Source: a virus
Lineage: Duplodnaviria > Heunggongvirae > Uroviricota > Caudoviricetes
Reading direction: 5' to 3' (one strand)
Virus record (IMG/VR): IMGVR_UViG_2695420863_000009
Length of the DNA: 15,900 bases
A model generated the notes under the pieces. The model was not told the DNA's origin. It saw only the letters and a program-made list of their open reading frames with translations, and searched no databases. Below are positions 9,189 to 10,259 of this stretch, in pieces (position 1 is the stretch's first letter; every line of letters begins with the position of its first letter). The position numbers and the translations under genes are program-made.

Positions 9189-10259
9189 TTACCCCCTGAA
9201 GCCCGGCGGAATTTCGTTATCCGGTTCAGAAATATGATTCACACAACGCTGGTTGTTCGTGCCGCTTACCGGGAGCAACCAGGGGTTCTCAAAATTCCGG
9301 TCCGGTCCAAAAAACGTCGTCGCTCGCTGAACAAATTCCGTTCCCGTTTTCCCGGTCGCCGCCAGGTATCTCGCGTAACGCCTCACACCATCCAGCATGG
9401 CCTCTGGTGGCACCCCCTCGCGCAATCTGGCCTTCCAGGCACTGAAAGCGGATTTCTTCGGGTTTGCCCCGGCACGCAACGGGTACTCCCGCCAGACCTG
9501 TTCGAACACATCCGGATAATCCACTCGTCCCACAGACTGACCGGTGTTTTCCGGGACTACCCGATCGGCTTCCCGCTGAATGGCGGAATCGGCTTCAGGC
9601 TGCTGAAGTTGGTGTGATTGCTCCTGCCTTGCGGTCATCACCTGCTGCACAGCGCCCGAATCGGCTTTCAGCGCATACGCTGAATCGGCTTCCGGTGTCG
9701 TGCCTGCTGGCTGACCAGGATTGACGGTCTGAACATCCCCTGCCTGGTTCGTGGCGTTTTTTACGCCATGGACCATAGTGTTTTGATCTTCTTGATCTGT
9801 ATCTTTATCTGTATCTTTATCTGTCGTGACTCGTCGTGACATGTGCGTGACATTTCGTGACTCGCCGTGACAATCGCCATTTTGTTCCCGCTTTCTTTCC
9901 CTCTCTCGCTGCGCCCTCTTGCGCTCTGCCGGAGATTTTGCGGTTTGCGAAATATTGCCGTTGTCCTCTTTCAGCACCTGGCGTTTTTCCCATCCAGTGA
10001 TTAAATCACCATCAAGTACCCGCCCCTGCATCGTCTGCAAAATTGAATCAATTACCTCTTCTGTCACGTCGAGCGCACTTGCCAAATCTTCTGTCGTGAC
10101 ATCAATGTGACCTCGCGTGACATTTCGTGACGCGCTCACCAGGAGGTGGATATACACTGCCATCACTGTTGCAATTGGCTGCCCTGACACCCTGGCAATT
10201 GTTCGCCACTTAGGGTCATTTGGCATGTCATGCCATAATCTGAGCCAGGCGTTAGCCAT
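9189..10259 (-). CDS. phage replication initiator (O-like replisome organiser)
   Basis: About 356 aa from the ATG at 10259 (SD gaggtgag). N-terminus MANAWLRLWHDMPNDPKWRTIA… resembles the replisome-organiser N-domain; low-complexity acidic linker (TDKDTDKDTDQEDQ); helical C-terminal domain. Two iteron clusters lie inside the coding sequence. Confidence 0.6.
   Translation of the reverse strand: MANAWLRLWHDMPNDPKWRTIARVSGQPIATVMAVYIHLLVSASRNVTRGHIDVTTEDLASALDVTEEVIDSILQTMQGRVLDGDLITGWEKRQVLKEDNGNISQTAKSPAERKRAQRERERKREQNGDCHGESRNVTHMSRRVTTDKDTDKDTDQEDQNTMVHGVKNATNQAGDVQTVNPGQPAGTTPEADSAYALKADSGAVQQVMTARQEQSHQLQQPEADSAIQREADRVVPENTGQSVGRVDYPDVFEQVWREYPLRAGANPKKSAFSAWKARLREGVPPEAMLDGVRRYARYLAATGKTGTEFVQRATTFFGPDRNFENPWLLPVSGTNNQRCVNHISEPDNEIPPGFRG
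9796..9871. repeat. iteron cluster 1 (candidate ori) within the replication gene
   Basis: Five CGTGAC repeats starting at 9825, 9835, 9846, 9856 and 9866 (10-11 bp spacing), preceded by the direct repeat tatctttatctg x2 and two GATC sites. Confidence 0.5.
10063..10131. repeat. iteron cluster 2
   Basis: CGTGAC/TGTGAC at 10095, 10106, 10116 and 10126 (about 10 bp spacing) plus an inverted GTCACG at 10063. Lies in the N-terminal coding region of the replication gene. Confidence 0.4.

Follow-up and report, generated by a model that had tools for sequence, protein, structure and literature searches.

The window, i.e. the whole stretch of 15,900 nucleotides that was analysed (Caudoviricetes, IMG/VR record IMGVR_UViG_2695420863_000009), carries on its minus strand a gene for a replication initiator, and all the repeats, the tandem and the GATC sites described below lie within this gene. 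The features are listed in the orientation of transcription, and array motifs are given in gene orientation.

9189..10259, minus strand: gene of the replication initiator (356 aa; start codon ATG at 10259-10257)
10095..10131: upstream (N-terminal) iteron array, cluster 2, three exact GTCACG and a GTCACA variant
10063..10068: single exact iteron, inverted, at a distance of 27 bp from the upstream array
9825..9871: linker iteron array, cluster 1, five exact GTCACG
9776..9824: AT-rich strand-asymmetric tract 3' of the linker array, candidate DNA-unwinding element
9790-9824: 12-bp tandem TCTTTATCTGTA, 2.9 copies, encoding DKDTDKDTD
9785-9788 and 9794-9797: GATC sites
9745..9775: imperfect 13-bp inverted repeat with a 5-nt spacer, adjoining the AT-rich tract
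9192..9263, minus strand: C-terminal 24 codons of the initiator, GTNNQRCVNHISEPDNEIPPGFRG, matching the extreme C-terminus of the host primosomal protein DnaT
8726..9148, minus strand: next gene downstream, DUF977/Ren-like (PF06163, E = 1e-28; PHROG 142 'Ren-like exclusion protein')

Over its entire length, the initiator matches PHROG 3729 ('replication initiation protein'; E = 2e-257), its gene shares 98-99% DNA identity with genes named 'DNA replication protein O' or 'replisome organiser' in seven E. coli phages, and the protein is called 'phage replisome organizer' at NCBI. It belongs to a 'replisome organizer'-like family. Pfam assigned no family at E <= 0.01 to the initiator or to 27 relatives, with the exception of PF17948 in two of the relatives, and homology with the lambda O protein was rejected because the Pfam model Phage_rep_O gave no match. 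The N-terminal domain scored 15.5 bits with TIGR01714 / Phage_rep_org_N (E = 0.015), which is below the cutoff of 49.8, and the PHROG 'replisome organizer' families 4880 and 5968 matched weakly (E = 7e-6 and 1e-4). This suggests that the resemblance of the predicted protein to replisome organizers of the SPP1 G38P type is distant at most.

The hexamer CGTGAC (GTCACG in gene orientation) occurs 17 times in the window, with 5.4 ± 2.2 matches expected, and a count of 17 was obtained in none of 200 dinucleotide-preserving shuffles. Up to five copies are found per 50 nt, compared with two at most in 2000 shuffles, and the hexamer ranks first in a window-wide analysis of hexamer clustering. The first-pass annotation had described two helically phased CGTGAC clusters inside the initiator gene, and the match counts and shuffles confirm both their existence and their location. 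The linker array starts at + strand positions 9825, 9835, 9846, 9856 and 9866 with spacings of 10, 11, 10 and 10, in agreement with the five repeats at 10-11 bp originally noted, and the direct repeat and the GATC sites reported beside it were also found. The upstream array, for which four repeats had been claimed, does consist of four units with spacings of 11, 10 and 10, but only three of them are exact (starts at 10095, 10116 and 10126), the fourth being a TGTGAC copy with one mismatch at 10106-10111. An iteron-type origin within an initiator gene has at least three direct repeats spaced about one helical turn apart; the locus has five exact copies in one array and three plus one in the other. 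Both clusters can be aligned as a 39-nt direct repeat of 72% identity with an offset of 260 bp, and copies of TCTGTCGTGAC flank them at an offset of 270 bp. The inverted copy at 10063-10068 codes for D-V-T within the conserved motif ALDVTE and may be incidental; locus L004 has direct GTAACG copies at the homologous position.

The AlphaFold2 model divides the initiator into the following segments.

aa 1 to ~95: N-terminal helical domain of DNA-binding type
aa 110-126: basic helix
aa 128-243: acidic disordered linker, pLDDT < 50
aa 245-332: compact C-terminal domain, followed by a conserved tail

The linker array (aa 130-148) coincides with the start of the disordered stretch, and the upstream array (aa 43-55) with the last part of helix 3 and a loop of low confidence, whose residues 48-52 have a pLDDT < 50. 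The iterons are thus placed inside the initiator coding sequence at structurally tolerant segments, namely a linker and a loop. The proposal that cluster 1 occupies the acidic interdomain linker, the lambda-type position, is supported by the modelled linker and by the lowest-GC stretch of the gene next to it.

This stretch, the tract at 9776-9824, has a GC content of 29% compared with 54% gene-wide, and the lowest-GC 40-mer of the gene begins at 9781. An AT-rich candidate unwinding element therefore adjoins the array, as in other origins of this class, and most homologs likewise have a DKDKD- or DTDTD-coding tract 3' of their linker array. On the + strand, the neighboring hairpin (9745-9775) is terminator-like with a T-rich run after it, and it was the only element above chance in a promoter and terminator scan of 9000-11100. 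It recurs in L002, L004, L005 and L066 despite a differing peptide (ATNQ vs ASEP), and the VHG motif that marks its position is absent in five relatives searched; the hairpin travels with the C-terminal module rather than with the iterons. In the window, the antisense fold is more stable than the sense fold (-27.0 vs -19.3 kcal/mol). The reading as an antisense RNA terminator was dropped, since the strand preference is inconsistent in L002, L004 and L005. A search for DnaA boxes (TTWTNCACA, <=1 mismatch) retrieved 28 matches compared with 37 expected, none of them in the arrays or the AT-rich tract, and thus no sign of a DnaA-dependent origin.

The conservation of the arrays was investigated in 58 homologous loci from Gamma-, Beta- and Alphaproteobacteria. 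Both arrays are present and have an identical core in 46 of the 58 loci, with the linker array at the equivalent position of the gene, while a clear array pair was not detected with the three cores tested in the other 12 (about one fifth). The cores GTCACG, GTAACG(C) and CGAACGC represent dialects that are changed at both arrays together. The hexamer that ranked first in nt 76-240 in an unbiased test recurred at 10.2/kb in nt 301-520 compared with 0.59/kb in the rest of the gene. One example is Erwinia L030, whose GTCACG core differs by a single base from the GTAACG of its close relatives L028, L026 and L004 at homologous sites of both arrays. A comparison of L030 with these three relatives yielded no clear candidate for a specificity-determining residue outside the iteron-coded loops, and the concerted single-base switches could result from repeat homogenisation together with a tolerant binder, without a change of specificity. 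The upstream array has moved in Stenotrophomonas and Dyella (L060, L062), where it occupies nt 87-107 instead of 129-160, and it is longer by 21 nt, i.e. two extra iterons, in E. albertii L007; array size thus varies in whole units. Across the homologs, the arrays are separated by about 178 to 350 bp. A fixed helical phase or loop geometry between them was rejected, because this distance does not correspond to a set number of helical turns. The second cluster that had been recognized in the N-terminal coding region is accordingly no peculiarity of the window, as it is conserved in the 46 loci and has counterparts in two unrelated types of N-terminal domain.

These counterparts were found in natural domain swaps. 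L066 and L067 are E. coli-type prophages with the C-terminal module of the window. L066 shares with the window the neighboring genes (P22_Cro, YdaT, DUF977), this module and the hairpin, but its N-terminal domain is unrelated and its iteron is the 11-bp AAGGGGCTTCGAAG, which occurs three times in the linker and twice in the sequence coding for the N-terminal domain, 245 bp further upstream. L067 harbors a third type of N-terminal domain, and its arrays, again two and ~250-260 bp apart, consist of a 12-bp iteron of its own. The reciprocal case is represented by the O157-type relatives, which retain the N-terminal domain and both arrays of the window and are combined with another C-terminal module (DnaT-like, PF17948); their homology with the window ends inside the AT-rich tract. 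Because unrelated N-terminal domains are accompanied by different iterons in L066 and L067, in which the C-terminal module is kept, the type of iteron goes with the type of N-terminal domain. The upstream array lies inside the coding sequence of this domain, so that its co-inheritance is partly forced by linkage, and the independent evidence for the coupling is provided by the linker array and the swaps. The comparison of iterons and initiator DNA-binding domains across related phages that had been recommended at the outset thus reveals covariation, in the form of three dialects and the domain swaps.

No DnaC-, DnaB- or P-like gene was detected between the initiator and Q with Pfam and PHROG. 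This bears out the earlier statement that only one replication protein is present, with neither loader nor helicase in this interval, and the DUF977/Ren-like identity of the next gene (PF06163) fits the lack of DnaC/P-like ATPase motifs ascribed to it. A DnaC-like IstB_IS21 gene is present in four relatives (L002, L004, L005, L067). A PDB sequence search retrieved 6aep (E = 0.003), 2ru8 and 9zbt, with the last 21-24 matched residues of each chain covered, and the identity of the C-terminal tail of the initiator with the C-terminus of DnaT (PDB 6aep) amounts to ~70% over 24 residues (...SEPDNEIPPGFRG vs ...SEPDNHIPPGFRG). Residues I350, P351, G353 and F354 are invariant among 14 homologs. The initiator is not DnaT (primosomal protein I) itself, as the NCBIfam model NF002770 matches at positions 156-179 only, with 19.2 bits vs a cutoff of 201, and PF17948 is absent. 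The likeness is confined to the extreme C-terminal tail, the rest of the C-terminal domain being a different helical domain, and sister initiators with the same N-terminal domain have a true homolog of the DnaT C-terminal domain (PF17948) instead. PMC13377028 presents DnaT as a protein thought to deliver DnaB/DnaC to restart sites. The DnaT-like tail is a candidate contact with the helicase-loading machinery of the host.

Two phage origins provide a framework for the locus. In lambda, iterons and then an AT-rich tract are located inside the initiator gene (PMC7466680), and in both lambda and Stx phages the origin lies, as proposed here, in the part of this gene that encodes the interdomain linker (PMC7466680). 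The likeness to lambda extends to the order of the direct-repeat array and the AT-rich tract, to the union of the N-terminal half and the iterons in one exchangeable specificity module that is separate from the C-terminal half, and to the location in the early operon, downstream of cro-like and cII-position genes. The differences are that lambda has 19-bp iterons with internal dyad symmetry instead of 6-bp cores at 10-11 bp spacing, that a second array is found here in the N-domain coding region, that a P-like partner gene is missing and a DnaT-like tail replaces the P-binding domain, and that the initiator is not homologous to O. [quoted passage not shown] SPP1 hence shares with the window a (here putative) origin embedded in the gene of its origin-binding replisome organizer and two separate repeat regions for the initiator, whose binding is predicted in our case. 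However, its oriR lies at a distance of ~13 kb on the circularized genome (PMC6316719), whereas the second array of the window is located ~260 bp away in the same gene. SPP1 moreover encodes a loader and a helicase (G39P, G40P), neither of which is present between the initiator and Q of the window. Among phages, a truly bipartite origin is best exemplified by the satellite phage P4, in which two iteron regions, ori and crr, contain the same short iteron, are both needed in cis and are bound by one initiator. Its iteron clusters are ~4.5 kb apart, its initiator alpha is a primase-helicase and, unlike here, its sites are not embedded in the coding sequence of a DNA-binding domain. The locus is most likely an origin of the lambda or SPP1 type located within the initiator gene, to which the conserved second array is a putative addition.

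We consider it probable that positions 9745-10131 represent the origin from which a lambdoid E. coli prophage replicates vegetatively, situated inside its own initiator gene. The N-terminal domain of the initiator would bind the 6-bp core GTCACG, and the recurrence of the core once per helical turn would place all sites on one face of the DNA. Two arrays of the same orientation would be available: the one in the part of the gene that codes for the linker has five sites, and the other, ~260 bp upstream in the N-domain coding sequence, has four. Their cooperative filling, with the ~220 bp between them looped or wrapped, might generate an 'O-some'-like complex that melts the adjoining AT-rich tract of 49 bp (9776-9824). 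Since the phage lacks a helicase or loader gene, the C-terminal domain and the DnaT-like tail are proposed to recruit the host machinery for the loading of DnaB. We infer binding by the initiator, looping, melting, recruitment of the host helicase and a role of the upstream array in initiation from sequence comparisons. No annotated rep_origin was found in the related records, and the open-access literature searched for Eru-type Stx phages, replisome organizers, DnaT-like proteins and GTCACG iterons does not describe this origin.

The strongest competing explanation, which we regard as possible but rather unlikely, confines the origin to the linker array and the AT-rich tract and assigns a regulatory role without participation in melting to the upstream array. 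The initiator bound ~130 bp into its own gene might obstruct the early transcript or restrain it by feedback, or the upstream array might be a barrier that forces replication to start in one direction. A single linker array is sufficient in lambda (PMC7466680), and the SPP1 initiator, when bound at the second site, is believed to halt forks instead of firing them (PMC6316719). The variable distance and phase between the arrays are easier to reconcile with a separate function than with a rigid bipartite machine, and both arrays are promoter-proximal to the AT-rich tract, so that a passing fork or RNA polymerase would meet the bound initiator. On the other hand, the upstream array overlaps no promoter-like element; the scan of 9000-11100 revealed one such site compared with 1.6 expected, which belongs to the linker array and lies on the antisense strand, and an operator-at-promoter function of the upstream array is thus unsupported. 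Moreover, this array is maintained in three unrelated types of N-terminal domain and also after its relocation, which argues for a core role, and P4 documents that true bipartite origins exist.

Far less probable is a scenario in which the arrays are bound by a host protein or by another phage protein, such as the DUF977 or YdaT-like product, possibly with a function outside replication. The core is admittedly short (6 bp) and the neighboring genes encode likely DNA-binding proteins, but L066 has the same neighbors and the same C-terminal module in combination with a different N-terminal domain and iteron. The hosts of homologs of the GTCACG class furthermore extend from Escherichia to Bordetella, Pseudomonas and Aquitalea, the protein sequences beyond the linker vary among these homologs, and in the few relatives whose gene neighborhoods were read these neighborhoods differ from that of the window, leaving the N-terminal domain as the sole constant partner.

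The peptide of the linker array, C-H-G-E-S-R-N-V-T-H-M-S-R-R-V-T (aa 130-148), makes use of all three reading frames, with the five GTCACG copies translated as C-H-G, E-S-R, V-T, M-S-R and V-T (frames 1, 2, 0, 2, 0), and the upstream array encodes A-S-R-N-V-T-R-G-H-I-D-V-T (aa 43-55). Synonymous sites were compared in 20 distant homologs of 42-68% GC with the aligned peptide ASxNVTRGHxxVT. In the upstream array, Ser is encoded by TCA in 19/20 homologs, Val by GTC in 20/20 at two sites, Thr by ACG in 20/20 and 19/20, and Gly by GGT in 20/20, while the usage of the same codons at other sites of these genes is 17-24%. His is encoded by CAC in 19/19 cases at the aligned array site compared with 60% elsewhere in the same genes. 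Synonymous positions are hence frozen within the hexamers and free to vary between them. Because the hexamer is read in three frames and its synonymous positions are frozen, the repeats very probably work as DNA-level sites, and pure codon repetition, which the first-pass annotation had named as an outcome that would count against an origin, is contradicted by the same two observations. It is most improbable that the repeats are a side effect of selection on an SRNVT...VTT peptide or of codon repetition, with no role of the DNA: the two arrays do give rise to similar peptides (ASRNVTRGHIDVTT and ESRNVTHMSRRVTT) and that of the N-terminal array is conserved in many homologs, but the available evidence strongly opposes this explanation, given that the three frames yield unrelated tripeptides, that hexamer synonymous sites are near-invariant over the whole GC range while their neighbors drift, that an altered DNA core entails an altered peptide (GNAGVTQSNA or SNATERGRTQ), and that the array peptides sit in a low-confidence loop and a disordered linker.

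A more far-reaching version of the origin model, which is tentative and in our opinion doubtful, holds that this very large family of proteobacterial prophage initiators has an obligatorily two-part origin, one half of it inside the coding sequence of its own DNA-binding domain, and a DnaT piece that couples the origin to the host PriA/PriB/DnaT-DnaB/DnaC loading pathway. If so, the binding-site code of the upstream array would dictate a protein loop in three reading frames, the DnaT piece would differ between relatives (a C-terminal tail here, a ssDNA-binding domain in the O157 relatives), and a lambdoid phage could replicate without a helicase loader of its own. The upstream array is a clear example of dual coding, in which putative protein-binding sites constrain a loop in all three frames, and the DnaT-like tail offers a testable idea for the acquisition of DnaB by a loader-less phage that also bears on the recruitment of DnaB/DnaC by DnaT.

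A defined origin would open the induction and escape replication of these prophages to study and allow new compatible replicons to be built, and the natural iteron dialects and domain swaps represent a ready system for the co-evolution of initiator and origin. Of 5426 complete E. coli genomes, 2078 (38%) contain the replication module. This very common but hitherto unstudied type of E. coli prophage most likely has its origin at the two arrays and the AT-rich tract. The family of the N-terminal domain comprises 2252 clusters at 50% identity. Relatives of the module, O157 prophages included, are distributed across the Proteobacteria, and annotations of its gene do not go beyond 'hypothetical', 'replisome organizer' or 'DnaT-like'.

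By gene content, the window corresponds to a lambdoid E. coli prophage's immunity and early region, with the following features:

11018-11734, plus strand: cI-like repressor gene (HTH_3 and Peptidase_S24)
10753-10968, minus strand: P22_Cro-like gene
10331-10756, minus strand: YdaT/cII-position gene
9189-10259, minus strand: replication initiator, 356 aa (PHROG 3729)
10095, 10116, 10126: starts of the three exact CGTGAC copies (plus strand) of the upstream array
10063: start of a lone inverted copy of the hexamer
9825, 9835, 9846, 9856, 9866: starts of the five CGTGAC copies (plus strand) of the linker array
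9776-9824: AT tract, candidate unwinding element
9745-9775: hairpin, a 13-bp imperfect inverted repeat adjoining the AT tract
9192-9263, minus strand: DnaT-like tail GTNNQRCVNHISEPDNEIPPGFRG, 24 residues (aa 333-356 of the initiator)
8726-9148, minus strand: DUF977/Ren-like gene, next after the initiator
Between the DUF977/Ren-like gene and RusA: DUF4406 gene and several small genes
RusA, followed by antiterminator Q (3120-3500, minus strand)

The PHROG 3729 profile ("replication initiation protein") covers the initiator end to end, and a Pfam search returned no family. Seven sequenced E. coli phages, among them Evi and Tritos, have genes 98-99% identical to it under the names "DNA replication protein O", "Primosomal protein I" and "replisome organiser".

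The hexamer CGTGAC (plus-strand reading; GTCACG when read along the gene) has 17 matches in the window versus 5.4 expected, and across 2000 shuffles no 50-nt window contained more than two. Counts, positions and shuffles thus bear out the proposal of the first-pass annotation that helically phased clusters are located inside the initiator gene. The sole correction concerns the upstream array, whose supposed four repeats are three exact copies and a one-mismatch variant at 10106 that fills the 10-11 bp register. Also found were the features noted near the linker array, a 12-bp tandem repeat at 9790-9824 and a pair of GATC sites at 9785 and 9794.

Pure codon repetition had been named as a possible explanation of the repeats, but the reading frames and the fixation of codons speak against it. 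All three frames carry the hexamer in both arrays (tGT-CAC-Gg, gaG-TCA-CGa, GTC-ACG, atG-TCA-CGa and GTC-ACG in the linker array). Independently of hexamer calling, codons were tallied per aligned residue in 20 homologs with the peptide ASxNVTRGHxxVT, whose genes range from 42 to 68% GC. The aligned codon is TCA for Ser in 19 of 20 homologs, GTC for Val in 20 of 20 at both positions, ACG for Thr in 20 of 20 and 19 of 20 at its two positions, GGT for Gly in 20 of 20 and CAC for His in 19 of 19. Elsewhere in the same genes these Ser, Val, Thr and Gly codons account for 17-24%, and CAC for 60% of the His codons. Because synonymous codons are fixed inside the hexamers and variable between them (three or four different codons at the Arg and Val positions), the comparison indicates that the DNA hexamers are the target of selection and the peptide is the consequence. 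Codon or peptide repetition as the source of the repeats is effectively excluded.

A pattern scan with one genome per species retrieved 60 loci encoding N-domain relatives from Gamma-, Beta- and Alphaproteobacteria; three full-length metagenomic homologs were added, and 58 genes were analysable. Two clusters sharing one core (approximately nt 130-160 and nt 340-480) are present in 46 of the 58. When, to avoid bias, the hexamer repeated most often in nt 76-240 was chosen and then counted elsewhere, its density was 10.2 per kb in nt 301-520 versus 0.59 per kb in the remainder of the gene. At least three dialects of the core exist (GTCACG, GTAACG(C), CGAACGC); both arrays always use the same one, and the encoded peptides shift with it at both arrays (SRNVT.., GNAGVTQSNA or SNATERGRTQ). 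In one close subfamily, the Erwinia locus L030 has GTCACG versus GTAACG in L028, L026 and L004, at homologous sites of both arrays. The upstream array of Stenotrophomonas and Dyella has moved to nt 87-107, another part of the N-domain, and is still kept, and that of E. albertii differs by +21 nt, exactly two units. Most homologs have a purine-rich, AT-rich tract coding for DKDKD or DTDTD after the linker array. The N-domain family comprises 2252 clusters at 50% identity (E <= 1e-3), and twin iteron-coded peptides were found in most of its best 135 full-length representatives. Neighbouring units in the N-terminal arrays of L030 and L004 make 10-bp palindromes (GTCACGTGAC, GTAACGTTAC); therefore the recognised element may be a GTNAC half-site, for which a head-to-head arrangement is also possible.

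The relatives are mosaics, and their natural domain swaps connect the iterons with the N-domain. E. coli O157-type proteins match the window through the N-domain, the two arrays and the DKDTD tract and then run into a DnaT-like C-module (PF17948); their DNA homology to the window stops inside the AT tract. Locus L066 (P0031) has the same C-module, hairpin and neighbours (P22_Cro, YdaT, DUF977) and an unrelated N-domain; its iteron is a different one of 11 bp, AAGGGGCTTCGAAG, with two copies within the N-domain coding region, 245 bp upstream of three linker copies, and a purine-rich tract comes next. L067 (P0114) has a third N-domain type; its 12-bp iteron, with the core AAGCCTT, also forms two arrays, separated by about 250-260 bp, so that at least three N-domain types share the two-array layout. 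Since N-domain swaps bring new iterons and L066 retains the same neighbouring genes, the iterons track the N-domain and not the C-module. This comparison of iterons and DNA-binding domains, which the first-pass annotation had suggested, provides, biochemistry aside, the strongest support available for the N-domain being the iteron binder. The main competing explanation gives the upstream array a regulatory role as a roadblock, feedback brake or fork barrier outside the firing machinery; the varying distance between the arrays favours this role, and the persistence of the upstream array with unrelated N-domains and at a new location favours a core function. Binding of the arrays by a factor other than the initiator is unlikely because L066 combines the same neighbours and C-module with another N-domain and another iteron. 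A 302-aa variant from E. coli chromosomes (P0020) lacks a segment spanning the linker array, AT tract and hairpin (RNVTHMSRRVTTDKDTDKDTDQEDQNTMVHG...) and would be an origin-deleted prophage copy, presumably dead for replication.

The AlphaFold2 model of the initiator (28-sequence alignment; mean pLDDT 61, domains confident) predicts a helical N-domain (approximately residues 2-78), a basic helix (110-126), a disordered stretch (128-243) and a compact C-domain (245-332; pLDDT ~95). Low-confidence residues 48-52 fall within the segment encoded by the upstream array. At the start of the disordered stretch lie aa 130-148, encoded by the linker array, and DKDTDKDTD, encoded by the AT tract, which agrees with the earlier assignment of cluster 1 to the interdomain linker.

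Domain and family searches of the window genes found no DnaC-, DnaB- or P-like gene in the interval from the initiator to Q, confirming that there is a single replication protein and that the next gene is not DnaC/P-like. A DnaC-like IstB_IS21 ATPase gene directly follows the initiator relatives in L002 (4987-5736), L004 (4972-5697), L005 (3964-4731) and L067 (2638-3387); in the window and its close relatives from E. coli, DUF977 takes its place. The initiator tail matches the extreme C-terminus of DnaT (PDB 6aep, E = 0.003; 2ru8; 9zbt) and positions 156-179 of the NCBIfam DnaT model, and its core I-P-x-G-F is invariant in 14 homologs. In the sister initiators of O157 prophages the DnaT ssDNA-binding domain (PF17948) replaces the window-type C-module; two different DnaT pieces are therefore found on one initiator family. 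PMC13377028 describes DnaT as a restart-primosome factor thought to recruit DnaB/DnaC, and the initiator tail may therefore couple the origin complex with the host loading machinery. No statement of the contact partner of DnaT's own tail was found in the literature consulted.

The sequences show the arrays, the way they co-vary with the N-domain, and the AT tract; by analogy with lambda (PMC7466680) and SPP1 (PMC5737612, PMC6316719), we infer initiator binding, looping, melting and recruitment. The initiator would be made from the early transcript, and its N-domain would sit on the GTCACG sites of both arrays on one helix face. Cooperative assembly would loop or bend the ~220 bp separating the arrays, the adjacent AT tract would then melt, and the C-domain and tail would draw in host DnaB loading. 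An iteron origin within the initiator gene is already known as a kind of element; new in comparison with lambda, SPP1 and P4 are the conserved second array inside the coding sequence of the DNA-binding domain and the DnaT-derived C-terminal elements. No origin is annotated under the match among the related phage or genome records listed, and no published description of a window-type origin was found in the open-access literature. Of 5426 complete E. coli genomes, 2078 carry the segment 9740-10265, nearly always on the chromosome.

Several further elements were noticed in the window. The plus strand of 9745-9775 forms a perfect stem including two G-T pairs; because this stem precedes a T-rich run, it resembles a terminator that lies antisense to the initiator gene. 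The hairpin DNA is kept in L002, L004, L005 and L066 despite a differing encoded peptide, and is inherited with the C-module, not with the iterons. GATC is strongly under-represented in the window (21 sites versus ~62 expected from its length), despite which two sites lie 9 bp apart within the AT tract; L002, L004 and L005 also keep a GATC in the corresponding position, a hint that Dam/SeqA may control the origin. The repeat GAATCGGCTTC occurs four times in the region 9562-9692 (9562, 9586, 9658, 9682; spacings 24, 72, 24), always in one reading frame, where it codes for EADS/KADS/EADR within the disordered linker. L066 and L067 likewise contain it in repeated form, and it could represent a short peptide motif or a further DNA site. 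Near the right end of the window, the 13-bp unit AAACGTTAATACC is found in tandem (1.9 copies) at 15024-15048 and 15874-15898, 850 bp apart.
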